From the NCBI GenBank assembly GCA_050176815.1, contig JBFXHR010000009.1, positions 11,673-75,672 on the forward strand: a stretch of 64,000 nucleotides of DNA, given 5' to 3'. The stretch is from Kiritimatiellia bacterium. GTDB lineage: Bacteria > Verrucomicrobiota > Kiritimatiellia > CAIQIC01 > Lenti-01. The notes beneath the pieces were generated by a model. That model worked only from the letters and a program-made list of their open reading frames with translations, was not told where the DNA came from and ran no database searches. Both the position numbers and the translations under genes were made by a program. Every line of letters starts with the position of its first letter. Within the stretch, counting starts at the first letter, position 1. Shown here in pieces: positions 28,048 to 58,650 of this stretch.

Positions 28048-31000
28048 CTATTCGTTCAGCACGCGGATCCTGTAGAGACGGAATTCGTAGGAACCCTCCG
28101 GCGGCACGTGGGTGAATTCGTTGGTAAACGCCATGATCGAAGAAACCCCGTAGCCGGCCGGATCGACTTCCTCGGCCAGCGGCCGCACGACGGACTGGAC
28201 GTCCAGCGGAACAAGGCGGTCGCTGTATTCGACGCGGTAGCGCGTGCCCCCCACGGAATTCCACCGCAGGACGGAAACGTCTCCGGTCTCGAACGGCAAC
28301 AGGCGAAGAACCGAATTGCTGTCGCGCGGATCGGTGTTCGCCCAGTATTCGTCGCCGGCGGGAACGCCGTCGCCATCCGAGTCGTCCAAATCCGAGACCA
28401 GGTTGGTGTAGTGCTCGATTTCCCAGTCGTCCGGCAGGCCATTGGCGTTGGCGTCGGCCGGCGGCGGCATCGCAAAGGTCGCGGTGGCGACGGCGCTGGT
28501 GAGCGATCCGTCCGAAACGACGAAATCCACGGCGTCGGTGCCGACGAAGCCGTGCACCGGCGCATAGACCGCCTCGCCGCTGGCCGCCGACAGCAGCGTG
28601 AAGAAGCCATGGGCCGGCTCGCTCTTCGCCTCGAAGGCCAGCGGCTGGCCGTCCGCATCGCTGCCGCCCAGCGTGAAGTTCGTCGGCGCGAAGCCGGACA
28701 GCTGGAGGTTGGTGGTCCACGCCGTCGGCGCGCGGTTGCTGAAGACGGTGCAGTCGCAGCTCTGCTGATCGGTTACGGCGCGGATCGACCAGCACAGGTT
28801 CGTCCCGACGTTCTTGGCGTAGGAATCCTTCATGCGCAGGCGCCAAATCCCGTTCACCGGCTTGCCGTTGAACGTATCCAGCGAGCCTTCCGGACGGTAG
28901 GTTCCCGCGAACGGCGCGCTGCCGTTGGTGATGGAAAGGGCGGCGGACTGGTCCAGCACCGTGTAGACCGCCGATCCGCATTCGCCCGTCCCGAAGTTGT
29001 CGTAGCGGCTGCCGCGCCGGTTCACCAGCAGCACTTCCGAACCATCGGGATGCTGCAGCGCCAGCACCAGGTCCTTGTCGTAGGTGTGGTCGATGCGAAT
29101 CCACACGTCGACGTCGCGGACGGCGTTGCTGCCCGCCAGGTCGATCGCCAGATCGGAATAGGTCGTGGAGGCGTCCGCGATCGCCATCGGCCCGTTCGTG
29201 CTTTCGAACAGGTTGGTGGTCGGCGGCTGGTATACGGACTGCCCGACCACGTGGTCGAAGACGTTGGTCAGCATCTGCCCGTTGACGGCCACGGCCAGTT
29301 GGAAGCGGAGAACGGTTCCGCACGCCAGGGAGGGATCGAGACCGTATTCGAAGACCGTTCCGTTGGTCGCGGCCGCGTCCGGAGCCATCGGGGGATAAGC
29401 CGACGCCCCCTGCACGATCGAAAGGCCCGGCGTCAGGGCCGTCAGCGTGGCGACCACGCCCGTCGCGGCGACGGACGATTTGTTCCAGAGGACGATTTGC
29501 TCGCGGATCGTTTCGCCCGGATCCAGCACGCCGTCGCCGTTGCCGGCGGGCAGGTCGCTGGACGCCGTTTCGCGCAACATCATGCCCGTCCGAGGGGTTT
29601 TCGAGAAAACCAGCGCGCTGTAGGGCCCGATCGTCACCGGTCCCGTCGCCGGCGTCCCCGCCGCCAACACCTCGGCGCTGCCGTAGTCGCCATAGTCGGC
29701 GGCATAGTTCGTCGAATCGCTGTTGAACAGCGCGTACCAGGTTCCCGCCGACGGGAACTGCACCGTGAAATTGCTGCGCACCGTGTTCGCGAAATTCCCC
29801 ACCACCACCGCGACGTCCCCCGTGGCGGCGCTGTCCCAGCGGCTGTAGGCGATCAGCTTGTTGCCGTTGTCCACCTGGTAGGTGCTGACGGAATCGCCCA
29901 TCAGGCCCGCCGAAACCCCGTCCAGGTTGCGCCGCAGGCGGATCAAGTCGCGATAGAGCCGCCAGTTCCCCGCCTGGCTGTTCGTGCGCGTCCAATCCAT
30001 CCGCCGCGTGTCGCTGAACTGGTTCGTCTCCAAGACCTCCTGCCCCTGCCAGATCATGGGCGTTCCGGGCGACGTCATCGCCAACACCTGGCCCAGCTGG
30101 GAACGCTTGCGCGCGTAGTAGCCTTCCGGCTCGGCCTCGTGGATCGCCGTCGGAAGGCGGGCCCCGCCGTTGAGATCGCCCGTCGTGTCGTGCGACTCGG
30201 TAAAGACGATCCGCGCCGCCGTCCCCGCCACGTTTCGCGCCACCGTGGGCATGTCGCGGGCGGAATCCTCCCCCTGGACCAGCACGCTCTTGATCTCCCA
30301 GGCGAACGACAGATCCCAGTAGTAGTCGAAGCCACCGATTTCCTTCGTGTCTTCCGCGATATTCCAGATGCCCGAATAGTTCGTCGCCATCAGGCTCAGC
30401 GCGTTGGTCACCATCAGCAGCCCGTTGGTGATGAAGATCCCGTTGGTCGTGTAGATGATGTGGTTCGGCGCGTCCCAGCGGAACCCGCTGATGTGGTATT
30501 CGTCCAGCCACATCCGGAACGTGTCGTTGATGTACTCCCGCACTTCTTGCCGGGCGTAGTCCGGCCGCGGCCCCCACGGCGTATAGGTGTAGGGATCGCT
30601 GGCGTAGAAATACGGTCCAGGCGCGGTGCCGTCGATCTCCCACAGCGACGAGCCCCCGTCCCAATGGTTGTGCACCACGTCCATCATCGTCACCAGCCCG
30701 CGCCGGTGCGCCTCCTGGACGAGGGACCGCAAGTCGTCCGGCGTCCCGTAGTTCTGTTCCACCGCGAACGGATAGGCCGGGTTGTAGCCCCAGCTCGTCG
30801 CGCTCGGAAATTCGTTGATCGGCATCAGCTCGATCGCCGTCGCCCCCAGCTCCGCCAGATAGTCCAGCCGGCCGGCAAACGCCGAGAACGTGCCGGTCGT
30901 CTCCGGAAAGGTTCCCACGTGCGCCTCGTAGATCACCAGGTCCCGCGCATTGGTGATGCTCGCCAAATCGCCGTTCCAGACGAAGGCGTTGGTCGGCGCG

Positions 31001-31365
31001 ACGATCGAGTTGTCGTTGTCCGCCGAATCGATGATCCGGCTGCGGGGATCGCTGCGCCACAGCGATCCATTCACGACGAACTTATAGGCGTGGTTCGTCC
31101 GCGCCGCCGGCACGTCCGCCGACCACGTTCCCGACGTCGCGCCTTCCTCCACGAGCGGATGCGCCGTCGAACTCCACCCGTTGAACGCACCCGCCACGCT
31201 CACGCCGGTCGCCGCGGGGGCCCACATCCGGAACGTCACCCCCGTCCCCGACGCTTCCGCATACGGGATGGAACCCCATCCCGGCCGACTCGATTGCGCC
31301 AGGGCCGTTCCTGCCCCGCTCAAGGCAAAAACGAAAACGCAACGCCCAATGGCTTGGCGGATCAT
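28048..31365 (-). CDS. Secreted GH13 alpha-glucan enzyme (CBM48-GH13, P-domain, Ig-like, C-terminal domain)
   Basis: Signal peptide; FRMWAPAA, WGYNP, DVVHNH, GFRWDA, IAED, TESHD; IDHTYDKDL P-domain; DSDGDG motif. Confidence 0.88.
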   Translation of the reverse strand: MIRQAIGRCVFVFALSGAGTALAQSSRPGWGSIPYAEASGTGVTFRMWAPAATGVSVAGAFNGWSSTAHPLVEEGATSGTWSADVPAARTNHAYKFVVNGSLWRSDPRSRIIDSADNDNSIVAPTNAFVWNGDLASITNARDLVIYEAHVGTFPETTGTFSAFAGRLDYLAELGATAIELMPINEFPSATSWGYNPAYPFAVEQNYGTPDDLRSLVQEAHRRGLVTMMDVVHNHWDGGSSLWEIDGTAPGPYFYASDPYTYTPWGPRPDYARQEVREYINDTFRMWLDEYHISGFRWDAPNHIIYTTNGIFITNGLLMVTNALSLMATNYSGIWNIAEDTKEIGGFDYYWDLSFAWEIKSVLVQGEDSARDMPTVARNVAGTAARIVFTESHDTTGDLNGGARLPTAIHEAEPEGYYARKRSQLGQVLAMTSPGTPMIWQGQEVLETNQFSDTRRMDWTRTNSQAGNWRLYRDLIRLRRNLDGVSAGLMGDSVSTYQVDNGNKLIAYSRWDSAATGDVAVVVGNFANTVRSNFTVQFPSAGTWYALFNSDSTNYAADYGDYGSAEVLAAGTPATGPVTIGPYSALVFSKTPRTGMMLRETASSDLPAGNGDGVLDPGETIREQIVLWNKSSVAATGVVATLTALTPGLSIVQGASAYPPMAPDAAATNGTVFEYGLDPSLACGTVLRFQLAVAVNGQMLTNVFDHVVGQSVYQPPTTNLFESTNGPMAIADASTTYSDLAIDLAGSNAVRDVDVWIRIDHTYDKDLVLALQHPDGSEVLLVNRRGSRYDNFGTGECGSAVYTVLDQSAALSITNGSAPFAGTYRPEGSLDTFNGKPVNGIWRLRMKDSYAKNVGTNLCWSIRAVTDQQSCDCTVFSNRAPTAWTTNLQLSGFAPTNFTLGGSDADGQPLAFEAKSEPAHGFFTLLSAASGEAVYAPVHGFVGTDAVDFVVSDGSLTSAVATATFAMPPPADANANGLPDDWEIEHYTNLVSDLDDSDGDGVPAGDEYWANTDPRDSNSVLRLLPFETGDVSVLRWNSVGGTRYRVEYSDRLVPLDVQSVVRPLAEEVDPAGYGVSSIMAFTNEFTHVPPEGSYEFRLYRIRVLNE

Positions 31366-31510
31366 CCAACCGCCCTGGGATGATAAAGCGTTTTCATTCC
31401 GCCGAAACCATATCCAACCCCCGGCCAAATGCAAACCCGCGGTGAATGTATTTTTAATATATTATTCCATGTTTTTGCATTTTCCGCGATCAGAAGTAAC
31501 ATACTAGACA

Positions 31511-33072: not shown

Positions 33073-33084
33073 ACGCCGCGCCGT

Positions 33085-33492: not shown

Positions 33493-33494
33493 GG

Positions 33495-34550: not shown

Positions 34551-34606
34551 CGTGGTCTCCTGAAATTTGTTTTGCTTCTTGTAGCCCTTTGGGGGGAAGC
34601 CGTCAA

Positions 34607-36322
34607 TCAGTCGCCCCGCACCCGGAAATAGCCGCCGGCAGGCTTCAGCGCCGGAAGGTCCACGGTTCGGGTGCTCCACGGCCGGGTTTCGCGCGCCCAG
34701 TTCGTCGCCGCCGTCCACCCGGTCGTCAGATCGTCCGTCCATTCGACGGCATAAGCCGTGCCTTCAAAGACCGGGAACGCGATTTCGCCGGCCGAGACGG
34801 CCGCAACCAATTCCGGCGCCAGCAGCGGGTTCGGTTCCTCGCGCACGTCGAGCAGGAACCGATACGCGTACGGCAGCCGCCGGGACCAAGCGGCTTCGTC
34901 GTGGTTGTCCCCAGAACCGATCATGAACCGCAGATCGACGTTGGGCGCATAGCCGAAGCTTGTCAGATACCAGTACAGGTCGTAGTTGTCGTCGTAGAGG
35001 CTGATGCCGCCGATGTCCAGTTCGAAGCCGACATTCCCGACGTCCATCCAGAACCGCGCGTCGTGCGGCGCGGCCGATTCCAGCCAGGTCCGGAAATTGG
35101 GGCAGAAATCGGCGCTGTACACCCCCGACATCGCCCCGACCAGCCCGAACACGTTCGTCCACGTGCCCAGGTACGTTGCCAGCAGCCCGCCCGAGGACGA
35201 GCCGATGCAGGCCATGTTTGCGCGGTCGTTTTTGGTTCGGAAGCTGTTGTCCACCATCGGGCGCACGTTGTGGATCAGATAATCGGCGTAGAAGTTGGCC
35301 CGGCCGACCGTGCCCGGAAGCTCGCCGGGATCCGTATCCATGTGCGGGAGATATTCGGTTTGCCGATTCTCGGCGCAGGGCACGGCGACGATGATCGCTT
35401 CCCGCATCCGGCCGCCTTGGATTTCCGCGTCTGCATTTGTTTCCGCATGCCAGCAGCCATATCCCGTCCAGGGAACGAACACGTTTTGGCCATCGCTCAT
35501 GTAGACCACGGGATAGCGGCGATCGACGTTCTCGTCGTACCCGCGCGGCAGATAAACCCGCACCCACCGACTCGTCACGTGGTCGACCGTGGATTTGACG
35601 TAGTTGGTGACGATCCGGCTGTCCGACACCCCGTTCGACGGCGGCACGTAGTTGAACACCTGCCGGTCGCAGACAACCAGCGCGTCGAGCGGCGTCCAAA
35701 AATCTTGCCCGTCCAAGGCCTTTTCCCACGAGTCCGTCCCGTTGCGCCACCCATTCAGCGCGAACCGCAGCCATTCGCCTTCGGTCCCGACGCCTTCCGC
35801 CACGTGCCGCCACTCGCCCGCGCGCAGCCCCGGTCCCGTTTGCGTCATCCCGACGGAATGCCACGCGCCCGTTGCGCCGAAGTCGGCCGCCGCCAGCGTG
35901 GAAAAGACCAAGCTCACGTTGGTCATGTCGGAATAGAACTCGATGCGCTTGCCGGAATAGGGCGCGGCCGCGTCCGCCGGCACGTTTGTTTGGAAATTGG
36001 CGCCGTCCGGCCAGTCCGCGTTCGCGGGATCGCAAATCAGCGCGGGATCGGTCGCGCGCCGGATGAACTTGTATTCCAGCGCCGTCCCGGCCTGGATGCC
36101 GACGTCCCCCCACCAGACGTCGCCTGCGGACCAGACCAGCTTGACGGCATTCGTCACCGTCCATGCGCCAATATCCGGATGGCTGCCCACCACGAACATT
36201 TCGTATCCGATTCCGGTGTTGGTGGTAATGGAAAAATGCACCGGCACCCGCAACGGACTGCCGGCCCATGCGGTGCCCGCGCCGAGCGCGGCCCAGCAGC
36301 AAAGGCGAAGGATGGTTTTCAT
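34607..36322 (-). CDS. Secreted CBM20 + alpha/beta-hydrolase (esterase) protein
   Basis: Signal peptide; CBM20-like FVVGS...IGAW...LEYKF; [30 protein letters not shown]. Confidence 0.85.
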
Positions 36323-37296
36323 AATCGTTTCAAGGCGGCTTGGAACACGGTTTCGACGTCCAACTCCCGCAGGCACGCCAAATCCCCCCGCGCGCAGGTG
36401 CGCGCATGGCACGGGCGGCATTCCAAACCGGCTTTCGCCACCACGTGGTTCCGCTGCCGATAGGGCCCCGTCCGGGCCGGATCGGTCGCGCCGAAAATGG
36501 CGACCAGCGGCACGCCCATCGCGTCCGCCCAGTGCATCGGCCCGGAATCCACGGTCACCAGCAGGTCCATCCCTTTCAGCAGCGAGCACAGGCCCGGCAG
36601 ATCGGTTTTCCCGCACAGATTCCGCGCCCCCTCGCCGATCTGGCGCGCCAGCGCTTCGCCCTGGGCCTCGTCGCCGCGTCCGCCCACGATGCGGATCTGG
36701 CAGCCCATTTCCGCGGCCATCCGTTTTCCCAACTCCGCGAAATTCCCGACGGGCCAGTTCTTGGTATCCCAGCGCGAAAACGGCGCAAAGGCCACGTGCG
36801 GGCCCGGACGGCCATCGCTTTCCGCTTCCGGAAAATCCAATCGGGGCTCCGGCGCGGCGCCTTCGCCGGGAACCACCAAGTTCGCCACGTCCATGAGTTC
36901 TTCGACGGCGTGCCGGCGAGGTCCATCGCCTTTCGGCGGCTGCCGGTCGTAGAAGCGAGGGGCCCCTTCCCGCGCCCAAGCGGGTCCAACGCGCGTGTTT
37001 CCCCGCGCCAACCGCGCGGCCAGCGCGCTTTTCATCAACCCCTGCAAATCCGCGACCGCGTCGTATTTCTCGCGGCGCAGCTCCCGCAGGAACGGGAAAA
37101 AGCCGCGCGCGAAATTCCGGCGCGGAAATTCGATCGTGCGGTCGACGTCCGGGCAGCACGCCAGCAGCGACGCGTATTCCGGCTGGACCACCCAGTCGAT
37201 GATCGCACCCGTGCGCTCTTTCAGGGCGCGCACGGCGGGCAAGGCGTGGGCAATATCGCCCAGGGAACTCAGCTTGATGACCAGGATCCGTTTCAT
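36319..37296 (-). CDS. GT9 LPS heptosyltransferase-like
   Basis: ILVIKLSSLGDIAH, DLQGLMKS, KNWP, DSGPMH, FGATDP. Confidence 0.9.
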   Translation of the reverse strand: MKRILVIKLSSLGDIAHALPAVRALKERTGAIIDWVVQPEYASLLACCPDVDRTIEFPRRNFARGFFPFLRELRREKYDAVADLQGLMKSALAARLARGNTRVGPAWAREGAPRFYDRQPPKGDGPRRHAVEELMDVANLVVPGEGAAPEPRLDFPEAESDGRPGPHVAFAPFSRWDTKNWPVGNFAELGKRMAAEMGCQIRIVGGRGDEAQGEALARQIGEGARNLCGKTDLPGLCSLLKGMDLLVTVDSGPMHWADAMGVPLVAIFGATDPARTGPYRQRNHVVAKAGLECRPCHARTCARGDLACLRELDVETVFQAALKRL

Positions 37297-47103: not shown

Positions 47104-48401
47104 GTTCGCTCCATTTGGTTCGCCGGGGCTTCCCCTGGCATTCCGAAATCATAAACCTCCAGCGATTCCCGCGCAATGCGCCGGGAATCGCACGTTTCCT
47201 CGACTTTGCGGCGGGCCGCCTGCGCCACGCCCGCCAAATCCACCTGTCCCTTCAGCACGGGGATCAGCTTGCCGGCCAAGGCGACGGCATCCGTCGGCGG
47301 AAACAGCCAGCCGGTTTTCCCGTCTTCGACGTATTCGGGAATCCCGCCGATCCGGCTGGCGACGACGGGCCGGCCCAGCATCATGGCCTCGATCATCAGC
47401 AGCGGCGACATGTTTTCGAACTGTTCGGGAATCACGACCGCGGAGGCGGCAAGCAGTTCCCGCTGGACCGCCTCGGGCGGCAGGTGTCCCAGAAAGGTCA
47501 CGCAATCGTCCAGTCCGTTGGCGCGAACGTATTTCTTCAAGTCGGCCCGGTAATCGGCGTCGAATTTGGTTTCCGCCCCCGCCACCCGCAGATGGACGCC
47601 GGGAACCGCCGCCCGCAGGGCCGGCAGGGCGCGCAGCAAGACGTGCAGGCCCTTGCGCTTCTGGAGCCACCCGGCGAAAAAAATGCGCCCCGGCACCGGC
47701 GGGACCGCCGTGCCGGACGTCTCCGCTTCGAATTCCAGCGGCAGCGTCAGCCGCACCACCCGGATCCGGTCCGGGGAAATGCCGTAATCCACCAACACCG
47801 AACGGGAATGCTCGGAAAGCGCCACCCAGCGGTCCACCATTTGCAGGTAGCGGTCGAAAACCCGCTTGCGATTCTTGAGCAACAGCCGCTGCACGCCCCG
47901 CCATTCCGGCGGCAGGCAATCCAGGCAGTGCGGGCCGTGGAAGCGGCGGCACGTCTCGTCCCGGCCGGTCAACAGCATCACGTTGGGGCAAAACATCCAG
48001 TAGTCGTAGACCGTATAGCAGATCCGCGCGCCCGCTTCCTTCGCCAGGCGGATGAGATCGAGACCCAGGAACTGGAAGTTGTGGAAGTGGACCGTCTCCG
48101 GGCGCACCTGGGCGAGAACGCGGCGGAAATCGGCGGCCACCAGGGGATCCGTTTGCCAGCGGTACCATTTGACCGGCTCCAGATAGCGCGCCATTCGCCG
48201 GGGAAGGAAATCCTCGACCCGCCGCAGGAAATAATGGGGATATTCCGCTTGCGGACGGGGCAGGTCGCTCCGGAGCGTGGCCAGCGCGTTCTGGACCCCT
48301 TGCTCCTGCAGCATCCGCACAGTGCGGAACAGCGCGTTTTCCGCCCCGCCCAGATGCGCATGCAATCCGCGGAAATAATTGGCGACGTGCAGCACCCGCA
48401 T
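47100..48401 (-). CDS. Glycosyltransferase family 4
   Basis: GGAE, HFHN, DYWMFCP, KRKG, ENMSPLLMIEAM, SRIGGIPE. Confidence 0.9.
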   Translation of the reverse strand: MRVLHVANYFRGLHAHLGGAENALFRTVRMLQEQGVQNALATLRSDLPRPQAEYPHYFLRRVEDFLPRRMARYLEPVKWYRWQTDPLVAADFRRVLAQVRPETVHFHNFQFLGLDLIRLAKEAGARICYTVYDYWMFCPNVMLLTGRDETCRRFHGPHCLDCLPPEWRGVQRLLLKNRKRVFDRYLQMVDRWVALSEHSRSVLVDYGISPDRIRVVRLTLPLEFEAETSGTAVPPVPGRIFFAGWLQKRKGLHVLLRALPALRAAVPGVHLRVAGAETKFDADYRADLKKYVRANGLDDCVTFLGHLPPEAVQRELLAASAVVIPEQFENMSPLLMIEAMMLGRPVVASRIGGIPEYVEDGKTGWLFPPTDAVALAGKLIPVLKGQVDLAGVAQAARRKVEETCDSRRIARESLEVYDFGMPGEAPANQMERT

Positions 48402-49823
48402 CTAGACCCGCCCGCGAAAAAGGCGCTTGAAGAAGTTCAGCACGTAGCGCCGATGGTAGGCGCCGAAGAAAATGCGGCGCACGTGTACCGGAAACCGCCA
48501 GGGGTCGTAGCGCAGCAAATAGCCGACCAACACCAGGACGTGGTACCATCGAGGCCGGCTCGGGAACAGGCAGGCGTACGAGAACCCCTGGATGTTTCCC
48601 AAATAGAACATCTTTACGCGTTGCGCCCGGGGATAGTCCGGGGTCTCGATCAACGGCGTAGGCCGGACGAAAAACGAGGTGTTGCGATAGTCCCCCAGCC
48701 ACTGCGCATGCGCCTGGGCCCAGTCCCAAAACGGGGTGTGGGGGAACGGACTGGCTAGGCTCCACAAGGCCTCGTCCAGGCCCAGCCGCCGCGCGCGGCG
48801 CAAGGTTTCGCGATCCTTGGCGTAGGTGCTGCCGGGCAGTCCCGCGATGAAAAAACCGCACACGCGCAATCCAGCGCCCCGAGCCCAGGACACAGCGTTT
48901 AAAACGGATTGGAGCTCCTCCCCCTTCTGGATGGCGTGAAACAGCTCCGGATCCAGGGTCTCGATCCCGAACCAGATCACGTCGCATCCGGCTTGCTTCA
49001 TGAGCCCCAGCAGTTCCGGATCCACCCGGTCGGCGCGGATGCCGTTGATGCAGCTCCAAATCAAATCCAGCTTTTGCGCAGCCATCTGCCGGCAGATGTC
49101 CTTGGCCCGGTTCATCCACAGAGTGAAGTTGTCGTCCGCGATCACGAAGCGGGTCACCCCGTACTCGGTCCGGGCGTTGCGCAGCTCTGCCAAAATGTTC
49201 GCCGGAGAGCGGTAGCGCCAGGCCCGGCCGCTGACCTTGTTGACGGAACAATAAATGCAGTCGTAGGGACAGCCCCGGCTGGTCACCAGGGGATAGCGGT
49301 CGGCGATGAGCCCCCGGGTGTCGAAAACCGTAAAGTCGGGCGGCGGCAATTCATCCAGCTTTTTGGCATAGGACAGCGGATTGCAGCGGACCTTCCCGTC
49401 CCGCCGATAGCACAAGCCCGGAATCCCTTCGAAATCCACCTCGGGAAAGCGGCTGCAAAACGCCACCAGAGACCATTCGGCTTCGCCCATGATCGCATAG
49501 TCGTACTCGGCGTTTTGTTCGAGAAACGAAGATTTTTCCAGCGTAACTTCCGGCCCCCCGCCCACCACCGGAATTCCCGCCCGCTGGAGCTGCGCGGCGA
49601 TCTCGCCGGCCGCCACCAGCGTGCGCGTCTTGATGGAAAGCCCCGCCAACGCCGGGCGCCAGGCGATCGCCTGTTCGATCCGCTCCTGCCGGGCATTGGA
49701 ATCGTTGTTCAGATCGCAGACGCGAACCTCATGTCCGGCATGCCGCAAGGCGCCGGCCAGATAGGCCAGCCCGGCATTGAAGCCGGAAACGTCTCCCGGA
49801 GGATCGAAAAGCGCGATTTTCAT
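48402..49823 (-). CDS. Cobalamin-binding radical SAM protein
   Basis: GLAYLAG, GGPE, GEAE, TSRGCPYDCIYC, DDNFT, FGIE, FIAGLP. Confidence 0.92.
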   Translation of the reverse strand: MKIALFDPPGDVSGFNAGLAYLAGALRHAGHEVRVCDLNNDSNARQERIEQAIAWRPALAGLSIKTRTLVAAGEIAAQLQRAGIPVVGGGPEVTLEKSSFLEQNAEYDYAIMGEAEWSLVAFCSRFPEVDFEGIPGLCYRRDGKVRCNPLSYAKKLDELPPPDFTVFDTRGLIADRYPLVTSRGCPYDCIYCSVNKVSGRAWRYRSPANILAELRNARTEYGVTRFVIADDNFTLWMNRAKDICRQMAAQKLDLIWSCINGIRADRVDPELLGLMKQAGCDVIWFGIETLDPELFHAIQKGEELQSVLNAVSWARGAGLRVCGFFIAGLPGSTYAKDRETLRRARRLGLDEALWSLASPFPHTPFWDWAQAHAQWLGDYRNTSFFVRPTPLIETPDYPRAQRVKMFYLGNIQGFSYACLFPSRPRWYHVLVLVGYLLRYDPWRFPVHVRRIFFGAYHRRYVLNFFKRLFRGRV

Positions 49824-49872
49824 GCGAAAACAGATTGAGTTCCAATGAGAAAGGACTTTTAATGGGCGCGGT

Positions 49873-50649
49873 ATGCAAAAAGCAATCACAAAAGCGCTGA
49901 TTCCCGCCGCCGGTGCCGGCAAACGGATGGGATATTTAAGCGGCATCCTGCCCAAGTGCCTGTTTCCCCTCGCCGAAAAACCCATCCTCCACCATGCCGT
50001 CGAAAACGCCATGCGGCTGGGCGCCCGCGACTTCGTGATCGTCACCCACTTCAAAGAAGACCTTCTTCGCGACTACTGCACCGAAACCCTGGTCCCGGAA
50101 TTGGGCATCCAGGTCGAGTTCGTGCACCAGGAGAAATTGACTGGCCTGGCGGACGCCATCCTCCTCGGCCGGCCATTTATCCAGGAGCCCTTCGTCGTCG
50201 TCCTTGGAGACGACTACACCGCCGCCACGGATTTCGACAATCTGCTCGAGTCCTTTTTCGCGCACAAGGACGCCATCGTGCTCGAAGGCATCGTTCCGGA
50301 ACCCAGCCGCGCGCAATTGTCGGGGACCTGTTGCGTCGAACGGGCGCCCGACGGGCGCATGCTGCGTATCCAGGAAAAGCCCCGCGAACCCTTCTCCGAA
50401 TTCCGCGGAACCGGCTTCTATCTATTCCGGCCGGACGTTTTCGACGCGATCGAAAACACGCCCGTCACGCCCCAGCGCCACGAGCGGGAAATCACGGAGA
50501 CCATCCGCCTGCTGGCGGAGTCCGGCCACGCCTACGCGGAATTCCTCCGCGGGATCAACCTGAACATCAACACCTTCGACGACCTGCTCAACGCCTGGAA
50601 CACCCATGCGCGCATCGCCGATTTCCTCCGGGCCTTCCAATGCCGATAG
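49873..50649 (+). CDS. Sugar-phosphate nucleotidyltransferase
   Basis: IPAAGAGKR...PKCL, GLADAI, LGDD, EKP, EITE. Confidence 0.9.
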   Translation: MQKAITKALIPAAGAGKRMGYLSGILPKCLFPLAEKPILHHAVENAMRLGARDFVIVTHFKEDLLRDYCTETLVPELGIQVEFVHQEKLTGLADAILLGRPFIQEPFVVVLGDDYTAATDFDNLLESFFAHKDAIVLEGIVPEPSRAQLSGTCCVERAPDGRMLRIQEKPREPFSEFRGTGFYLFRPDVFDAIENTPVTPQRHEREITETIRLLAESGHAYAEFLRGINLNINTFDDLLNAWNTHARIADFLRAFQCR

Positions 50650-50734: not shown

Positions 50735-53700
50735 CTATTCCTGCACCTGGATCATGTAGAAACCGGAAACGGCGCCGATCCGTTGATTGGTATAGGCGCA
50801 TTCCGGTCCCGTGGCCAGAATGCCGGAGACCAGGGGCCTGAATCCCGAGATCAGATCGGACGTCCAGAGGATCTGGTAGGCCACGCCGGGCACGCTGGTC
50901 CACCGCAGAACGACGGCGTCGTAATCCTCCATCAAGGCGACCGAGGACTGGACCACCAGCATGTCGCCGTCATCCAAGGGATTGGTGCCGGCCTTCCGTT
51001 CCGCGAGATTGGAGAACCCGTCCTGGTCCGCGTCCTGCGAATCCAGCGTTCCGGCGACGATCCCCTGCTCCACGAGCGCGGCGATTTCCTGCCCGCCCAG
51101 CGCCCGCCGGTACATGCGCACGTCGTCGAGCATTCCGTGCGCAAACGAAGCCATGGGCAAGACCGCGTGGTCGCTGGCCCCGATGAGCAGACCGGTCGCC
51201 GGGTTGTGGGCCAGCGGGTAATCGTGGGCCGCCGTTCCGACCAGCGCGCCGTCCACGTAGATTTTCATCTCCGGCCGCGCGAAGGTCGCCGCCACGTGGT
51301 GCCACTCGCCCACCCCCAGCGGCGCGGAATCCAGAAGGGTCTGGAGATCGCCGTTGCCCAGCGTGAAGCGCAGGCTGCCGCCGGATTGGATTTGCAGGGC
51401 GTAGGACTCGTTGTCGTTCACGGCCGCGTTCCGCTTGAAGAAGAGTTCCATCACCCCCGTCGGCAGGGAATCGAACCGCACCCAGGCGGAAAGGGTCACC
51501 GCTTCCGGCATCAGCGACTCGGAAGAAGCCGCGCGGATATAGTCGTCCGTCCCGTCGAAAAAGACGCCGTTGGCCACCATCCCGTTTTCGGCGATCTGGG
51601 CGCCGACGAGCTGCCCGTCGTTTCCGTACCCGCTCGAATCGGCGGCGGTTTCGCCCACGTCCGCATCGAAGACGTAGCGCAGGACCAGGTCGCCGCTTCC
51701 CGCCGAACCCGCCTGTTCCGCGATTTCGGCTTCGGACAGGACGCGCTTGTAGAAGCGCACCTCGTCCATTTGGCAACGGGCAAACGAACCGACCGCGCCG
51801 CCGGCGGCGTCTTCGGCGCCGATGAACAAGTCGGTGGCCGCGTTCTTGGTCAGGCGATCGAAATGCCGCGCCGAACCGACCAGCAGCCCGTCCAGATAGA
51901 GATTCATGTCCGGCCGCGAGAAGGTCGCGGACACGTGGTGCCACGTTCCGGCTTTCAGCGGCGGCGTGTCCAGCCAAGTCTGCCACTTCTTGGCCAGCAC
52001 CCACCGCACGGCGCCCTCCGGCGTCAGTTGCAAGGCGTAGTCCACCCCGTTGGCGAGACCGGGAACCCGCTTGAAGACCAGCGTCTGGAGTCCGCCCGGA
52101 GCGCCTTCGATCTTCACCCACGCGGTGATGGTCAGATCGTCGGCATCCAGCGTGGGGCTCCACGGCACCCGGATATGGTCGTCTTCCCCGTCGAAGGCGA
52201 TCGCCAAGCCCTCCGCGCCGTCCGTCGCGGTTTGCGCGCCGCCCAGCCGGACGCCGTCGTTCCCGTATTCGCTGGAATCCGTCGCCGTCGTTTCATCGTC
52301 CGCGTCGAAGGCCAAGTGCAAGATGAGATCTCCGCCGCTCGCCGGAGGCTCCTCTTCGCCCGGATCGACGTAGGCCAAGGCCGCGATTTCGTCCGCCGCC
52401 AGGGAGCGGTTGTAGATCCGCACGTCGTCCAGCGCCCCGTGCGCGAACGAGGCCATCGGGTAGACGGCGTGGTCGCTGGCGCCGATGAAAAGATCGGCGC
52501 CCGGATTATGGGCCAGCGGATAGTCGTGCGTGGCCGTGCCGGCCAGCGCGCCGTCCACGTAGACTTTCATTTCCGGCCGCGCGAAGGTCGCCGCCACGTG
52601 GTGCCACGCTCCCGCGCCCAACGTCGCCGACGAATCCAGGCGGGTCTGGGCGCCATTGCCCAGCACGAAGCGCACGCCGCCGCAAGAATTGACCTGGAGG
52701 GCATAGTCTTCGTTGTTGTGCATGTCCAGGTTCCGCTTGAAGACCAGTTCGGCGATTCCCTCGGGCAGGGAATCGAGGCGGACCCAGGCCGCGACCGTGA
52801 CGGCTTCGGGCATCAAGGAGGCGCTGGACGGGGTTTGGATGCAATCGTTCGTCCCGTCGAACGCCGCGATCTGGCCGCCGGCTTCGCCCGGCGCAACTCC
52901 GGCGCCGACGAACCGGCCGTCGTTGCCGTATTCGCTCGCATCGGTCGCCGTGGTTCCGTCGTCCGCGTCGAACGGGTAATGCAGAACCAAATCGCCGCCG
53001 GCCGGCGGCGCTTCTCCGCCCGGATCGGCCACCGCCAATTCCGCGATTTCTTCCGCCGCCAGAACCCGGTCGTAGATCCGCACGTCGTCCACGTATCCGC
53101 CGTCCGGACCGGGGTTGTCCGGATGTCCGCCCAGCAGGAGCAGTCCCGACAAGGTGGTATCCACCGGTCCTCCCAACTCGCTCATCCCGTCGCTGGCGAC
53201 GCCGTTATAGTACAGGTGGTGGTCGCCGTTGCCCCCGTAGGTGTACGCCACGTGGATCCACGTGCCTGGCGCGGGCACCTGGCGCGCGGTCAGGAAGCAC
53301 GTGCCCCCCGGCGAGAAATAGACCCGGTCGCGGTCCAGGCGCCAATCGAAGCCGATCCCGTTGAACCGGCCGTCGAATCCCTGCGTGCCGTAGCCCAGCA
53401 TCCCCGTGCAGCCTTCGAGATAGTTCGTGTCGATCTTCATCCACAGCGCGAGGCTCCGCGGCGCGTCCCCGCTCGGCAGGCCCGCATCCGTCGCCGTGAT
53501 CGTCTGGGCGTTGCTGTCGAAGCGGTAGGCCCCGCCCCGCGCCCCGTCCGCCACCCACGTCGCCCCGTTCACCGTTCCGGTCCGCCCGTTTCCGCTGTCG
53601 TCCGTCACCACGCCGCCTTCGTCCGCGTCGAAGGTGTAGTGCAGGATCGGCGCCGTCCGTTCTTCCGACACCGCCAGTTCCGCGATTTCTTCCGGGAAAA

Positions 53701-55639
53701 GAACCCGGTCGTAGATCCTTACGTCGTCCACGTATCCGCCGTCCGGCCCGATCGATCCCGGATGTCCGCCCAGCAGCAGAAGGCCCGACAACACGGTATT
53801 GACCGGCCCCCACAGCTCGCTCATCCCGTCGCTGGCGACGCCGTTGAAGTACAGATGGTGGTCGCCGTTGCCGCCGTAGGTGTACGCCACGTGGATCCAC
53901 GTGCCCGGAGCCGGCACCCGGCGCGCGGTCAGGAAGCACGCGCCGTTTTGAGAGAAGTAGATCCGGTCGCGGTCCAGGCGCCAATCGAAGCCAATCCCCG
54001 TCTGCTGGTTGTACAACCACGTGCCGTAGGACAGCATCCCCATGCAGCCTTCGGGATAGTCCCGGTCGAGCTTCATCCACAGCGCGAGGCTCCGCGGCGC
54101 GTCGCCGCTCGGCAGGCCCGCATCCGTCGCGGAGATGCTCTGGCTGTTGTTGTCGAAGCGGTAGGCCCCGCCCCGCGCCCCGTCCGCCACCCACGTCGCC
54201 CCGTTCACCGTGCCGGTCCGCCCGTTCCCGCTATCGTCCGTCACCACCCCGCCTTCGTCCGCGTCGAACGTGTAGTGCACGATGGGCCCGGCCAGGCCCG
54301 CCAATCCCGCGACTTCTTCCGGCGCCAAGACCCGGTCGTAGATCCGCACGTCGTCCAGATATCCGCCGTCCGGCCCGGGATTGTCCGGATGGCCGCCCAG
54401 CAGGAGCAGTCCCGACAAGGTGGTATCCACCGGCCCTCCCAACTCGCTCATCCCGTCGCTGGCGACGCCGTTATAGTACAGGTGGTGGTCGCCGTTGCCC
54501 CCGTAGGTGTACGCCACGTGGATCCACGTGCCCGGCGCGGGCAATTTGCGCGCGGTCAGGAAGCACGTGCCGCCCGGCGAGAAATAGACCCGGTCGCGGT
54601 CCAGGCGCCAATCGAAGCCGATCCCGTTGAACCGGCTGTCGAATCCCTGTGTGCCGTAGCCCAGCATCCCCGTGCAACCATTGGGATAGTTCGTGTCGAT
54701 CTTCATCCACAGCGCAATGCTCCGCGGCGCGTCGCCGCTCGGAAGCCCCGCATCCGTCGCCGCGATGGTTTGGGCATTGCTGTCGAAGCGGTAGGCCCCG
54801 CCCCGCGCCCCGTCCGCCACCCACGTCGCCCCGTTCACCGTTCCGGTCCGCCCGTTCCCGCTGTCGTCGGTCACGATGCCGCCTTCGTCGGCGTCGAACG
54901 TATAGTGCAGGATGGGACCCGTCCGTTCCAGCGGGGCGCCGGCCAACGCGGCGATTTCCTCCGCCGCCAGGGCCCGGTTGTAGATCCGGACGTCGTCCAG
55001 GTCGCCGCGCGTGAACGAGCCCATCGGATAGAAGGCGTGGTCGGACGCCCCGAGAAAGAAATCCGCCGACGCGTTGTGGTACAGCGCGTAATTGTGGTTG
55101 GCCGACCCCGCCCATGCGCCGTCCACGTAGATGTTCATGGCCGGCCGCGAGAAGGTCGCCGCCACGTGATGCCATTCGCCCATGCCCATCGGCGCGGAAT
55201 CCAGCCGCGTCTGGGATCCGTTGGCCAGCACGAACCGCGCGCTTCCGGACGGCAGGACCTGCAGCGAGTACGCCTCGTTGTTGTAGCTGCTGGGATTCCG
55301 CTTGAAAACCAGCTCGACCACGTCCGTCGGCAGGGAATCGAAACGAACCCAGACGGCGATCGTCACCTCCGCCGGCATCAGGGATGCGCTGGACGGCGCC
55401 CGGACATAGTCGTCGATGCCGTCGAAGGCCGCGATCTGGCCGCCCTCTCCGTCTGAAACGATTTGCGCCCCGACCAACTGGCCGTCGTTCCCGTACGCGC
55501 TCGCATCGAGAACCGCGCTCCCCGCATCCGCGTCGAACGTGTAATGCAGCACCAGATTGGCGCCGGCCGTTCCGAACGCCGCGCAGGCGCTTCCCATCCA
55601 CAGGGCCAACCCCATCGACAACCGACTCGAGATTTTCAT
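50735..55639 (-). CDS. Large secreted protein with seven LamG-like jelly-roll domains
   Basis: Signal peptide; 7x LHYxFD...WxHVA...DDVRIYxRxL; DADQDG motif and C-terminal domain. Confidence 0.92.
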   Translation of the reverse strand: MKISSRLSMGLALWMGSACAAFGTAGANLVLHYTFDADAGSAVLDASAYGNDGQLVGAQIVSDGEGGQIAAFDGIDDYVRAPSSASLMPAEVTIAVWVRFDSLPTDVVELVFKRNPSSYNNEAYSLQVLPSGSARFVLANGSQTRLDSAPMGMGEWHHVAATFSRPAMNIYVDGAWAGSANHNYALYHNASADFFLGASDHAFYPMGSFTRGDLDDVRIYNRALAAEEIAALAGAPLERTGPILHYTFDADEGGIVTDDSGNGRTGTVNGATWVADGARGGAYRFDSNAQTIAATDAGLPSGDAPRSIALWMKIDTNYPNGCTGMLGYGTQGFDSRFNGIGFDWRLDRDRVYFSPGGTCFLTARKLPAPGTWIHVAYTYGGNGDHHLYYNGVASDGMSELGGPVDTTLSGLLLLGGHPDNPGPDGGYLDDVRIYDRVLAPEEVAGLAGLAGPIVHYTFDADEGGVVTDDSGNGRTGTVNGATWVADGARGGAYRFDNNSQSISATDAGLPSGDAPRSLALWMKLDRDYPEGCMGMLSYGTWLYNQQTGIGFDWRLDRDRIYFSQNGACFLTARRVPAPGTWIHVAYTYGGNGDHHLYFNGVASDGMSELWGPVNTVLSGLLLLGGHPGSIGPDGGYVDDVRIYDRVLFPEEIAELAVSEERTAPILHYTFDADEGGVVTDDSGNGRTGTVNGATWVADGARGGAYRFDSNAQTITATDAGLPSGDAPRSLALWMKIDTNYLEGCTGMLGYGTQGFDGRFNGIGFDWRLDRDRVYFSPGGTCFLTARQVPAPGTWIHVAYTYGGNGDHHLYYNGVASDGMSELGGPVDTTLSGLLLLGGHPDNPGPDGGYVDDVRIYDRVLAAEEIAELAVADPGGEAPPAGGDLVLHYPFDADDGTTATDASEYGNDGRFVGAGVAPGEAGGQIAAFDGTNDCIQTPSSASLMPEAVTVAAWVRLDSLPEGIAELVFKRNLDMHNNEDYALQVNSCGGVRFVLGNGAQTRLDSSATLGAGAWHHVAATFARPEMKVYVDGALAGTATHDYPLAHNPGADLFIGASDHAVYPMASFAHGALDDVRIYNRSLAADEIAALAYVDPGEEEPPASGGDLILHLAFDADDETTATDSSEYGNDGVRLGGAQTATDGAEGLAIAFDGEDDHIRVPWSPTLDADDLTITAWVKIEGAPGGLQTLVFKRVPGLANGVDYALQLTPEGAVRWVLAKKWQTWLDTPPLKAGTWHHVSATFSRPDMNLYLDGLLVGSARHFDRLTKNAATDLFIGAEDAAGGAVGSFARCQMDEVRFYKRVLSEAEIAEQAGSAGSGDLVLRYVFDADVGETAADSSGYGNDGQLVGAQIAENGMVANGVFFDGTDDYIRAASSESLMPEAVTLSAWVRFDSLPTGVMELFFKRNAAVNDNESYALQIQSGGSLRFTLGNGDLQTLLDSAPLGVGEWHHVAATFARPEMKIYVDGALVGTAAHDYPLAHNPATGLLIGASDHAVLPMASFAHGMLDDVRMYRRALGGQEIAALVEQGIVAGTLDSQDADQDGFSNLAERKAGTNPLDDGDMLVVQSSVALMEDYDAVVLRWTSVPGVAYQILWTSDLISGFRPLVSGILATGPECAYTNQRIGAVSGFYMIQVQE
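53040..54917 (-). repeat. Three near-identical ~630-nt internal domain repeats
   Basis: Units begin near 54917, 54286 and 53650; long identical DNA stretches, unit 1 closest to unit 3. Confidence 0.9.
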
Positions 55640-55756
55640 GTCGCCACCCTTTGTCCGGCCGAATAAAACGCATCGACCGCACTTAAAGTGTATAGAAAAT
55701 TAATAGGGAAACGAAACCTTTTTTGTTAAAATCGCATAAAGGCGCGCCGTGGCGGC

Positions 55757-56374
55757 TCATTCCCTTTTGCGCCGAAGGGCTAGTAGCAGGCCCCCCGCCG
55801 CCAGCAGGGCGGAGGTGGCAGGTTCAGGAATGACTCCCGCTCCCGCGAGGATGCCGACTCCAGGCTCGGTTTCATAGGCAAAGTCCATGATGATGCCGCC
55901 CGTGCCGTTGACGGGATTGCTGATGCGAACCCAGCCATAATGAACGGTATCCTCGATGTTGAACATGACGCCCATATAGGCCGTGATCATCAGAAATTCC
56001 CCGGTATTGACCACGACGCCCGGCGGCACAGTTGCGCTGGAATTGATGTTTAATTGGCCAAGGTAGCCTTGCAGCCAGTCTTCTTGCGGAGTGTCTGGCC
56101 CGATAGAAGTTCCTTCCGCGAGCGCATGGACACTGTTCCCCCCCGCAATGATGCGGCCATCCCCTTGAACGAAGGCGCCAAACCACATTCCCGTGCTCAT
56201 GAACAGAATGTCGTTGATCAAGTCTCCATTGAAGTCCAAATCATATTCAATGGTTTCCCCAGATGTATACATCCCTTGGTTGACCCAGGTGTAGGCGACA
56301 AAAGCCTGGCAGGTGCGAGGGGTGAAAAGCAGGCTTCCAACAAACAGGGCCAGAGTTAATCTCATTGCTTGCAT
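55757..56374 (-). CDS. PEP-CTERM sorting-domain protein
   Basis: Signal peptide; C-terminus IPEPATSALLAAGGLLLALRRKRE; HYGWVRI motif. Confidence 0.92.
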   Translation of the reverse strand: MQAMRLTLALFVGSLLFTPRTCQAFVAYTWVNQGMYTSGETIEYDLDFNGDLINDILFMSTGMWFGAFVQGDGRIIAGGNSVHALAEGTSIGPDTPQEDWLQGYLGQLNINSSATVPPGVVVNTGEFLMITAYMGVMFNIEDTVHYGWVRISNPVNGTGGIIMDFAYETEPGVGILAGAGVIPEPATSALLAAGGLLLALRRKRE

Positions 56375-56389
56375 GTTGGGCAGCCGCGT

Positions 56390-58650
56390 TTATGGTACTT
56401 CTTTGACGCGGAAGAACAAGACATCGGGTTCGGGCACGGCCTCTACGCCCAGAACCATATTCGTGCGAAGCGCGCTGATGTCGCCGGTTAAGTCGGCCCA
56501 GGCACTATCGATCAGGTTTGAGTTGGATTGCACGCGGTAGTATTGGCCGACCACGCCGGCCCATTCCAGTGTGTTGGTTGGGGCGTAGGTCCTGTTGACC
56601 TCGACGATATCCAACTGCGGCCCGGACATCGGCAGATTGCCCGATATCAAAATGGAAACGTCTTGCCAATCGTTGGAGAGCGTGCCTTTGTGGGTCACCC
56701 GAACGAGATAGATTCCGTTCGTGGGCGCGGCGACATACAGTTGCTCCACATTGTCTCGGAAGTTGTCACCCGTCGTGGCGGCGCTCGACGGGCTGGCGGG
56801 GTCCAACACCCACGGCATATTCGTTGCGCCGGATGGACTGATGACTCGCAAGTCCAGATCGTTTACCAAGACAAGATTTGTCGGATCCACGGAAGGGGCC
56901 ATAATGGGACCCGGCGGATCGGTCCAAACCACGGTAACTTTCAAGGGCTGGCTGTTCGTTGCGAGAATCGGGAAGACGATGCTTTCGCCATTTGGAAGGA
57001 CAACTTCCTTGATGTGCGCATGGCCATCTCCGGCAACGTCATTCGTGATCAAATGGGCAGCGGCGGGCGTGTTCATCAGGCCCCAGCCAAAAGAATAGTC
57101 TGGCCCAGCATTGCCGCAGTCGTCCGCCGTGTGGATGGCAAGGCCTTTCAACGTGGACGCGAGCAACGCTCGATTGGTTCCGCGAACAATCCCGTAGAGT
57201 TGCTGAAGAAGACTCAGGGATCCCGCAACGCTTGGGGCGGCGAAACTCGTACCTGATAGCGTGGTATAGGTGGCGTCAGTCGCATTGGATGTTGTGAACA
57301 AATCGACGCCTTGTGCAACCACATCGGGCTTTATGCGCCCGTCATCCGTCGGCCCGACACTGCTGAATGAAGCCAAAAAGACATATGATGGCGAGGTATA
57401 TCCCCCCAGAACATTGCTAACAGCCCCCACGGTCAGCACATTTTTTGCGGCACCCTGCGGCGGGATCAAATCATATCCATTGGGATATCCATCGCTTTGA
57501 TGAACCAGGGATGTGGTCCACCAATAAGATCCATTAATATATAGCCAGTGAAAAAACGGCTGCGTTTCCGGGCCCATATTAATGCCACCGCACTCATTGC
57601 CCGAAGCCCATACGGGCAGATAAGTGCTCGCATCATACACAGTCTGGTCGATGCGGTACGATTCATTCGAGCTGTAGAAACCGAACTTATAGTCCTCATC
57701 CGGGTGAACATTGGGATCGCCCCACCATATCCAGTTCCACGTTCCCCCGTTGTCGATGACGTTCCACCCGGAATTGCGCACATAGGAGTGATTGGAAATC
57801 CGCAAATCACTTACCGCAACCGCAGCCATTTCGGCAAAATCATAATACCAGTCATGGGAAAGCAGACGGCTGGAAAACGCCATGCCCTTGGCGCTTGTGT
57901 TTATCCCGGCCGCCACCAAAGTTCCAGCAACGGCGGTTGAATGGGGATCGACCAGATAGTTGGTAGCACCATCCAATTGCGTGATCCGGCAATCTCCGCC
58001 GGATACAAACTCAACATGGGTAGTCCGTACTGCACAACCATCCCACATTCCAAGAACCGTATTTGTGCCGGAAAGAGAAAAGCCAAGCTCTCCGCCAGGC
58101 CATACTTCGTCCGTCCCAATGGAATCCGCTGACCGCGCATTACATGTGACATAAAAGACGGGATGGCCATCATGCATCGCCATCAATTCGCAGGTCGAAC
58201 CATCCTTCTGAAGAAAACGAGTCGGAAAATTCTGCGTCTTGGCAATCCGTTCTGCCTCCTGTTTTTCGTAGCGTTGCAGTTCAAATAGGTCCGGGATACG
58301 GGCGGCGATTTTTCGCGCTTGGCTTGCCGAAATTGCTCAACCGTGGCCGGAATACCATTAGCACTCAGGCTGCGATGCCAGATTTTTTCAGTAGAGTTGG
58401 TTTTGGTGTTTACGAATTCGCCCGGGGTCCCTTCTGTTTCCGAACGGCCACTTGATACGAACGACTTAATTGCAGGAGCGCTTTCGCCCGTCTTCTGTTC
58501 ATATGCCGCCTGGGTGATAAGACCGCCTTCATACATTTTGCGGTACAGTTCCCTAACGCCGTCTTGTGCATTGGCGGGCTTTGGCAACCAATAGATAGCA
58601 GCGTCAGCAGATAAAAGAAGTCCAAGCCATTTTGCTTTTCCCGTTTTCAT
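56390..58650 (-). pseudogene. S8 subtilisin-like protease split by one frameshift (pseudogene or sequencing error)
   Basis: Triad MWDG, PHSTAVAG, SGTSFAAP in ORF 56390..58186; signal/propeptide in ORF 58183..58650; frames join at the A5 run 58309-58313. Confidence 0.75.

Follow-up and report, generated by a model that had tools for sequence, protein, structure and literature searches.

Four unrelated secreted proteins encoded in the window, the whole stretch of 64,000 nucleotides analysed here, end in a common module that almost certainly belongs to a single genuine family of terminal domains on exported proteins. Across Verrucomicrobiota, the copies are homologous, belong to the same fold class, occupy a terminal position and are borne by signal-peptide proteins (their parents). 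The reading of this tail that we favour, with a probability of about 0.4, is that it would work as a docking or retention module for the cell envelope. Verrucomicrobiota, Kiritimatiellia among them, play a major part in breaking down complex polysaccharides in oceans, sediments and guts, and the tail, with about 45 exported proteins per genome and no curated model to describe it, provides an obvious handle on how these bacteria place enzymes outside the cell. A model of the family would also improve the annotation of thousands of "hypothetical" protein ends.

Four proteins of the window share a C-terminal module

Translations and HMM matches show the module at the end of four genes, all on the minus strand, which encode a GH13 amylase-like protein, a CBM20-esterase, a protein with seven LamG domains and an S8 protease. 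As described preliminarily, the four translations share an aromatic-x4-G-x2-Y motif and a terminal aromatic/basic strand that lies two to four residues before the stop codon. The DxDxDG...E...TxP stretch that had been noticed ahead of two of the tails corresponds to the bacterial TSP3 repeat (PF18884), which is present ahead of the GH13 and LamG tails and absent from those of the esterase and the S8 protease.

The GH13-type gene (28048..31365, minus strand), whose signal-peptide-like start was picked by our own heuristic, encodes a signal peptide, CBM48, the alpha-amylase catalytic and C domains, P_proprotein, Big_9 and the tail, according to Pfam and the translation. Its tail module (HMM envelope 28048..28383, minus strand, stop codon included) comprises a TSP3-like calcium loop and a beta domain with an insertion. 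The gene for the CBM20 and esterase protein, identified by Pfam, occupies 34607..36322 (minus strand); its open frame extends upstream to 37159, and the same type of heuristic places the most likely start at the signal-peptide-like Met at about 36322 rather than at the first start codon. The esterase tail is a beta domain with no TSP3 repeat (34607..34804, minus strand; HMM, E 6e-7) and is the most divergent of the four, its AF2 model (m46d30171f008) having a pLDDT of 81-92 across the beta part. The LamG gene (50735..55639, minus strand; Pfam and translation) encodes seven Laminin_G_3 domains followed by a tail module at 50735..51034 (minus strand), detected by the HMM, in which a TSP3 repeat precedes a predicted six-stranded beta-sandwich. 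Comparison with the 757-residue orthologue P0167 indicates that, in this assembly, a frameshift divides the S8 subtilase gene in two: an upstream frame (58183..58701, minus strand; 58% identity to P0167 residues 1-117) carries the signal peptide and the first 117 residues or so, while the main frame (56390..58186, minus strand; Pfam), which lacks the N-terminus, is 74% identical to residues 159-757. Its tail, again without a TSP3 repeat, is found at 56390..56608 (minus strand; HMM, E 3.4e-12).

When the four window tails were excluded from the building of a beta-only HMM, the resulting model recovered all four at the C-termini, with E-values of 8e-10 for LamG, 1.8e-5 for S8, 4.3e-3 for the esterase and 8.4e-3 for GH13. 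Given their weaker values, the esterase and GH13 tails are to be regarded as divergent members of the family, the latter with its insertion.

The tail in its own genome

An HMM built from the four tails alone matched further C-termini throughout the 3.0 Mb genome and, after iteration, retrieved 47 ORFs with the full module, one copy each, amounting to about 45 exported proteins. The beta-only HMM gave 43 matches, all of them single copies and 42 of them at the very end of the protein, the remaining one being internal (C68); in a control with reversed ORFs at E<0.01, a single match was obtained with this model, against 43 real ones, and none with the full-module HMM. Between the domain and the stop codon lie 0-6 residues, and the last position is non-random: proline closes 25 of 44 copies, and proline, glutamate, glutamine or aspartate 43 of 44. 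A TSP3 repeat precedes the beta domain in about 33 of the 47 copies.

The parents span more than 20 unrelated families. Pfam annotation of 40 parents genome-wide and the four in the window returned GH13, GH31, GH57, polysaccharide deacetylase, GDSL lipase and FGE-sulfatase, peptidases of the C1, C13, C14, C25, C39-like and S8 families, and Exo_endo_phos nucleases, a periplasmic binding protein, LamG, Calx-beta, MBG and LTD, a variety that makes a single substrate-specific role unlikely. A signal-peptide-like or signal-anchor N-terminus was recognised in 34 of the 36 parents with a complete 5' end, by a heuristic of our own applied without SignalP or a control set. A 129-residue ORF of this genome (G000 C42:6604-6990) consists of a lipoprotein signal and the beta domain alone.

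Distribution across Verrucomicrobiota

A profile search found the domain in 46,660 protein clusters. Under the GTDB definition, every strong named relative belongs to Verrucomicrobiota (Kiritimatiellia, Lentisphaerales, Pedosphaera and others), and the relatives named include the cultivable Pontiella, Luteolibacter and Fontisphaera. A locus scan with a single protein gave six loci, four of them full-length and all from Verrucomicrobiota, and in the ESM Atlas the matches were confined to "hypothetical protein" clusters of the same phylum. The distribution of the tail tracks whole clades.

The terminal position is maintained outside the genome of origin. Indeed, in 26 other genomes the stop codon falls 0-5 codons past the domain in 39 of 40 sampled matches, and proline is the last residue of 25 of the 39 terminal copies. 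Among the 150 best global matches, the architecture is more varied: tandem arrays of up to nine copies occur, some proteins are made of module repeats alone, clearly non-terminal copies are present in 16 of 126 domain-bearing proteins, and pectate-lyase-like, DUF1800 and LamG proteins carry two copies at the N-terminus.

Predicted fold and TSP3 linker

The domain, of about 70 residues, is predicted to be a six-stranded fibronectin-III-like beta-sandwich that lacks the last (G) strand. In particular, the AF2 model of the LamG tail (m43ac069f6bc6, mean pLDDT 89.7) contains six strands, plus one helix in the TSP3 part, and in structural comparison it scores highest with Fn3 domains (5g56_A, Z 7.0, rmsd 2.4 over 69 residues; 3mpc_B, Z 6.6), the matches as a whole having Z-scores of 5.4-7.0, which on the scale of the tool is the range of common arrangements and below the level treated as specific. 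These Fn3 domains are 90-101 residues long, and the alignments run no further than about residue 75-83, consistent with a missing G strand. The conserved W, Y, L, W and Y/F occupy the usual Fn3 core positions, and their conservation thus reveals no binding site. Foldseek found no PDB entry similar to the tail model at E<=0.001, and nothing significant emerged from a profile search of the PDB, where the best values were E 0.043 for a discoidin domain and E 0.062 for a cohesin-containing protein. A complex prediction with two copies of the tail gave no answer (score 0.08, mark 0.42) and speaks neither for nor against their pairing.

The first 22 residues or so of the module match PF18884, while the beta domain lies outside it. 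The curated cut-off of this family (25 bits) is exceeded in parents L003, L009, L020 and L032; the LamG tail, at 22 bits, is just below it, and at E<=1 the family is detected in 11 of 38 tails. The NCBIfam model Amuc_1099_fam matches 26 of 38 tails, confined to the TSP3 stretch. For the beta part, no curated Pfam or NCBIfam family was found in the four window tails or in the 38 tails scanned, which bears out the expectation of an uncharacterised domain. No description of it was retrieved from the full-text literature searched, a coverage that excludes most subscription journals, and neither PMC9957290 nor the preprint 10.1101/2023.06.07.544157 deals with it.

Relation to known terminal domains

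The tail and the C-terminal domains (CTDs) of the T9SS (type A, Por_Secre_tail, TIGR04183/PF18962; type B, TIGR04131/PF13585) are alike in being small Ig-like beta-sandwiches, by prediction in the case of the tail, in which dozens of signal-peptide proteins per genome end; in both, the cargo is of unrelated folds and includes C25 peptidases, glycosidases and giant adhesins. However, none of 38 tails, nor the four of the window, matches the NCBIfam and Pfam models of these CTDs at E<=1, the tail has a preceding TSP3 calcium loop, and the wider family includes arrays of up to nine copies and N-terminal pairs, so that the single terminal copy typical of the T9SS holds in the genome studied here and fails beyond it. 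With Fn3 domains (PF00041), such as those of CtXyl5A of C. thermocellum (5g56) and 3mpc, the modelled tail shares the strand order, with W in strand B, Y in strand C and aromatic-x-V in strand F. It differs in having six strands rather than seven, ending where G would begin, and in being tied to the C-terminus and to the TSP3 repeat; PF00041 matches 0 of 38 tails at E<=1, although it does match other regions of some parents.

Dockerins (PF00404) provide the working analogy for docking, as they depend on calcium, like the tail in all probability, and are likewise usually single and C-terminal on varied secreted enzymes, occasionally elsewhere, but they consist of a duplicated helical calcium motif with no beta-sandwich, and none of the 38 tails matches their model at E<=1. 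We know of no cohesin-like partner for the tail. PEP-CTERM sequences are likewise C-terminal tags on exported proteins of this phylum and coexist with the tail in the genome, whereas they are made of a short motif and a transmembrane helix and the tail is predicted to be a folded soluble domain. As previously noted for the window, no PEP-CTERM protein carries the tail, PF07589 matching five other ORFs and no tail-bearing one. An identity of the tail with a T9SS, PEP-CTERM or sortase signal was rejected.

Possible roles of the tail

If the tail is a docking or retention module, the proteins that carry it would be exported by Sec, the tail would fold after export, probably with calcium, and the outer membrane would most plausibly be crossed via one of four secretin-based systems. 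The tail would then bind a component of the envelope and serve as a handle, shared by all the cargo, by which the proteins are retained or positioned there; in this it would resemble dockerins, SLH domains or the half of a T9SS CTD responsible for anchoring, and not a translocation signal. Such a role fits the tandem arrays, the repeat-only proteins and the N-terminal double copies seen elsewhere, together with the ORF of this genome that joins a lipoprotein signal to the beta domain. The flush C-terminal position and the proline end, by contrast, have no obvious need in docking and fit the recognition of a free end or protection from tail-specific proteases, and no gene recurs beside the tail-bearing genes. 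Were the tail a sorting or docking tag, it would reveal a new surface-display system and a tool for enzyme display in these bacteria.

Docking or retention fits better than a secretion signal that, as in the T9SS, is strictly C-terminal. The preliminary description had proposed an export or surface-anchoring tag; the terminal position, the signal-peptide parents and the lack of a curated family partly support such a tag, while the tandem arrays, the N-terminal copies and the internal copy in C68 are hard to square with a strict secretion signal. A true signal is seen as rather unlikely; it would be recognised by a translocon of the outer membrane, or by an attachment apparatus, peculiar to Verrucomicrobiota and not yet known, and would be a functional analogue of the T9SS CTD, possibly cleaved after export. 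It would explain the strictly terminal position (42/43 in this genome, 39/40 in others), the non-random last residue (proline in 25/44 and 25/39), the one copy per protein in this genome and a cargo of about 47 proteins in 3.0 Mb, including C25 gingipain-like peptidases, glycosidases, nucleases and giant adhesin-like proteins. This list resembles T9SS cargo lists, and the size and Ig-like fold of the tail are near those of T9SS CTDs, with a Z of 5.4 for the PorZ CTD (5m11_A), a likeness no better than that to hundreds of Ig-like domains. Against such a signal stand the arrays and the 16/126 proteins with clearly non-terminal copies, the two-N-terminal-copy family among them, and the lack of candidate machinery, with no recurrent neighbour and 0/47 tail genes having a prepilin-type gene within 5 kb. 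We are similarly doubtful of its fuller version, in which the tail would mark cargo for a still undiscovered pathway of outer-membrane export or surface attachment, peculiar to Verrucomicrobiota (Kiritimatiellia, Lentisphaeria, Verrucomicrobiae). Recognition would depend on the free end, usually a proline, of an Fn3-like sandwich without its G strand, whose exposed edge strand could be completed by a partner; if true, this pathway would handle about 2% of the proteome, like the T9SS in Bacteroidota.

The absence of machinery in the neighbour and prepilin searches would be expected if the tail were a passive Fn3-like end cap or spacer, stiffened by calcium and with no part in sorting or docking, which would stabilise exported multidomain proteins or shield their C-termini from tail-specific proteases of the periplasm. 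The terminal bias would then stem from such protection or from past domain shuffling. The generic sandwich with conservation limited to core positions, the frequency of Fn3 spacers in bacterial extracellular enzymes, with the Fn3 domains of CtXyl5A and 3mpc as top matches, and the existence of tandem arrays all point in this direction, as do the 43/44 copies ending in Pro, Glu, Gln or Asp, a sign that apolar C-termini, the ends which tail-specific proteases prefer, are avoided. A spacer would be expected anywhere, yet the tail is the last domain in 42/43 cases, once per protein and in more than 20 unrelated parent families, and the same position across the phylum, in 46,660 clusters, suggests a shared function beyond stability, so that we give the passive cap only limited credence. 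Less probable still is a carbohydrate-binding module that would hold enzymes on a polysaccharide, be it their substrate or the capsule of the cell itself. Many parents are glycoside hydrolases, and beta-sandwich modules of this kind are often terminal; the weak profile matches to discoidin/CBM32 domains of glucanase/chitosanase (4zy9_A, E 0.043; 2rv9_A and 4zxe_A; range 0.043-0.047) are, however, above any significance threshold, F5_F8_type_C (PF00754) is found in 0/38 tails, the protease, nuclease, lipase and solute-binding parents share no glycan substrate, and the prediction is of an Fn3-like fold half as large as a discoidin domain.

Genomic surroundings

The search within 5 kb of the 47 tail genes identified no recurrent neighbouring gene, hence any machinery would lie elsewhere in the genome, as originally supposed. 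No match to the T9SS core models TIGR04189 and TIGR03519 (SprA, PorP) was obtained in this 90%-complete genome, nor in the control genomes, which leaves the sensitivity of this search unvalidated. The genome encodes four secretins, 24 prepilin-type N-termini and one exosortase. In the same 5 kb neighbourhoods, giant Rhs/YD-like ORFs adjoin three small tail proteins.

A common C-terminal domain

The four tail genes of the window all lie on the minus strand and, by translation and Pfam/NCBIfam scanning, encode a GH13-type protein (CBM48, alpha-amylase catalytic and C domains, a P_proprotein domain and Big_9), a protein joining CBM20 to an esterase, a protein with seven Laminin_G_3 (LamG) domains, and an S8 subtilase. 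The last 65-110 residues of each have no Pfam or NCBIfam match, the four tails scanned alone at E<=10 returned nothing beyond one chance-level match, and searches of the literature turned up no account of the domain; as the preliminary description had supposed, the beta part of the tail is without a curated family match.

The claim that these proteins share a C-terminal domain is supported by an HMM of the four tails, by its iteration and by a leave-out model, searched against all stop-to-stop frames of at least 50 aa (n=26,996) in the genome holding the window (2.99 Mb, 103 contigs, 90% complete). With the HMM from the four tails alone, further weak matches already cluster at the ends of long ORFs, and repeated rounds at a domain E-value <0.01 settled on 46 sequences. 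The full model that resulted (linker plus beta part, 99 positions) matches 47 ORFs at E<1e-3, while a beta-only model (71 positions) matches 43, with one copy per ORF; reversed ORFs at E<0.01 gave no match and one match, respectively. A beta model from which the window tails were withheld still detects each of them at the end of its protein (LamG 8e-10, S8 1.8e-5, esterase 4.3e-3, GH13 8.4e-3); the divergent members are those of the esterase and GH13. The expected C-terminal placement holds for 42 of the 43 beta-domain matches: 39 reach to within 12 residues of the stop, and three (GH13, C7:89783 and C22:4337) are terminal but, owing to insertions, align only in part. The only truly internal copy in this genome belongs to a C25 (gingipain-family) peptidase (contig C68:436-2814, plus strand), in which ~175 aa without a Pfam match follow the beta domain. 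Large repetitive tail genes appear to break the assembly, so that 47 is a lower bound. Many tail genes run off the ends of contigs C41, C19, C99, C62, C85, C92, C27 and C20, and near-identical C25 peptidase genes are present on C62 and C85.

Anatomy and predicted fold

The module consists of a linker (the first ~25 residues) followed by the beta part. The motif described ahead of the tail was found again, as DxDxDG...E...TDP, in ~33 of the 47 modules, as judged by eye from the HMM alignment, and its sequence is that of a bacterial TSP3 repeat. PF18884 is above cut-off in four of the tail-bearing proteins (parents) and reaches E<=1 in 11 of 38 tails, and NCBIfam Amuc_1099_fam covers the same 22 residues in 26 of 38. 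The beta part, which is mildly acidic (median pI 5.0), conserves W, G-R-x-Y, L, W and a last strand of the form aromatic-aromatic-R-x-x-V; the final residue of 44 copies is P in 25, E in 12, Q in 4, D in 2 and R in 1.

An AlphaFold2 model of the LamG tail, with the 38 in-genome tails as input alignment, folds into six strands, with a short helix in the TSP3 linker (mean pLDDT 89.7). The esterase tail, modelled from the same alignment, has the same strand order (beta part pLDDT 81-92), with its first 19 residues disordered and no TSP3 repeat there. Foldseek returned no match to the tail model at E<=0.001, and a wide VIA-align structure search placed Fn3 domains on top (5g56_A, Z 7.0, rmsd 2.4 over 69 residues; 3mpc_B, Z 6.6), ahead of the type IX secretion domain (T9SS CTD) of PorZ (rank 49, Z 5.4). 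The Fn3 alignments end at about residue 75-83, and the matched Fn3 domains themselves span 90-101 residues; the beta part is read as a predicted Fn3-like sandwich ending at strand F.

Parent proteins and export

Among the 40 genome-wide parents and the four window proteins, Pfam distinguishes more than 20 unrelated families. These include the glycosidases GH13, GH31 and GH57, polysaccharide deacetylase, peptidases (C1, C13, C14, C25, C39-like, S8), GDSL lipase, FGE-sulfatase, Exo_endo_phos and Peripla_BP_6, together with LamG, Calx-beta, MBG, LTD, Kelch and PKD. Eleven of the 47 tail ORFs are truncated at a contig end or a gap; among the remaining 36, 34 carry a signal-peptide-like or signal-anchor N-terminus by a hydrophobicity heuristic applied by eye, with neither SignalP nor a control set, in line with the signal peptides first described. 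The signal peptide of the S8 protease sits in a separate upstream frame, and none was found in the ORF at C7:86356. A 129-aa ORF (C42:6604-6990, minus strand) consists of a lipoprotein-type signal (lipobox with Cys) directly followed by the beta domain, nothing else, and may represent a tail copy anchored in the membrane.

Distribution and position in other genomes

Among 1.84 billion representative proteins, a profile search identified 46,660 matches at E<=1e-3, of which 17,612 reach E<=1e-10. All strong relatives with an organism name are Verrucomicrobiota in the GTDB sense (Kiritimatiellia, Pontiella, Pedosphaera, Luteolibacter, Fontisphaera, Spartobacteria, Chthoniobacterales, Lentisphaerales), named after other domains of the protein or as hypothetical; two weaker, partial matches fall outside the phylum, in Nocardioides and a Pseudomonadota MAG. 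Of 151 genomes sampled from the phylum, 76 contain a match at E<=1e-5; by the family tallies, 46 of the 49 others in the class of the window's genome do so, versus 29 of 101 from the rest. Because scoring stopped at 32 candidates per genome, per-genome figures are not copy numbers.

For position, 40 matches were picked from the best 150 of 966 so as to spread over 26 other genomes, each taken with 120 bases downstream. The terminal placement extends to these genomes: a stop lies 0-5 codons past the match in 39 of 40 (in one of these, 2 codons before the match end), and proline is last in 25 of the 39. Collectively, these data demonstrate one family of homologous domains, uncurated and with a predicted Fn3-like fold, that is bound to the C-terminal position of exported proteins phylum-wide.

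In the best 150 global matches, a set biased to multi-copy proteins, the beta domain was located in 126, with up to 9 copies per protein. Ninety-four of these end within 10 residues of the C-terminus (HMM coordinates), 14 more have the typical final strand at the end (by eye), 2 are borderline and 16 are clearly non-terminal. About ten non-terminal cases have two copies straight after the N-terminus, then a pectate-lyase-like domain; DUF1800 and LamG proteins also belong to this group.

Possible roles of the tail

The tail would be a common handle that keeps or places proteins on the envelope. Docking or retention is tentatively favoured (probability roughly 0.4) over a true translocation signal, as elsewhere the module also occurs in arrays and N-terminally, arrangements that suit a binding module but not a terminal signal. 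The non-terminal copies would count against a strict C-terminal signal; nevertheless, the way the tail sits flush with the protein end and closes with proline keeps that reading alive, albeit as an unlikely one. A passive cap is about as improbable as a signal, and a carbohydrate-binding module appears a distinctly poorer candidate than either.

Genomic surroundings

The genome has five PEP-CTERM matches, none of which is on a tail protein, consistent with the earlier separation of the two groups. It also encodes one exosortase (C2:72910-73647), four secretins and 24 prepilin-type N-termini; none of the 47 tail genes has a prepilin-type gene within 5 kb. No sortase was found in it, and SprA and PorP-family searches gave 0 matches there, but as they also gave none in any control genome these two negatives are unvalidated. 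The sole recurrent neighbourhood is formed by related Rhs/YD-like giant ORFs (~1,600-2,000 aa) beside three small tail proteins, each with a signal peptide, a YD/RHS-like repeat and the tail (C5:60508-66049, C45:3395-11044, C14:17196-29708); no other gene family was found to recur near tail genes.

Within the GC-rich window (~0.57-0.69 in 4-kb windows), the four tail genes are separated by YmdB, RNase Y, 5-FTHF cyclo-ligase, thioesterase, glycosyltransferase and two B12-binding radical SAM genes, and form no operon since these are housekeeping or cell-envelope genes. A small ORF between the LamG and S8 genes (55757-56374, minus strand) has a PF07589 match of 22.7 bits at 55766-55831. The S8 gene (56390-58701, minus strand) is split by a frameshift near 58186-58310, which leaves the signal peptide and first ~117 residues in a separate upstream frame (orthologues are 754-762 aa); the split reflects either loss of the gene's function as a pseudogene or a mistake in the assembly. 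GC falls to its window minimum (0.567) in the 56-60 kb block around this gene. The radical SAM genes (48402-50054 and 58832-60301, minus strand) lie beside glycosyltransferase genes (47100-48401 and 60316-62253) and a nucleotidyl transferase gene (49873-50649), and together may form an envelope glycan or lipid modification set. Finally, the frame of the esterase ORF (34607-37159, minus strand) stays open for ~280 codons upstream of the likely start, with an Arg/Gly/Ala-rich translation that is probably non-coding read-through in GC-rich DNA.
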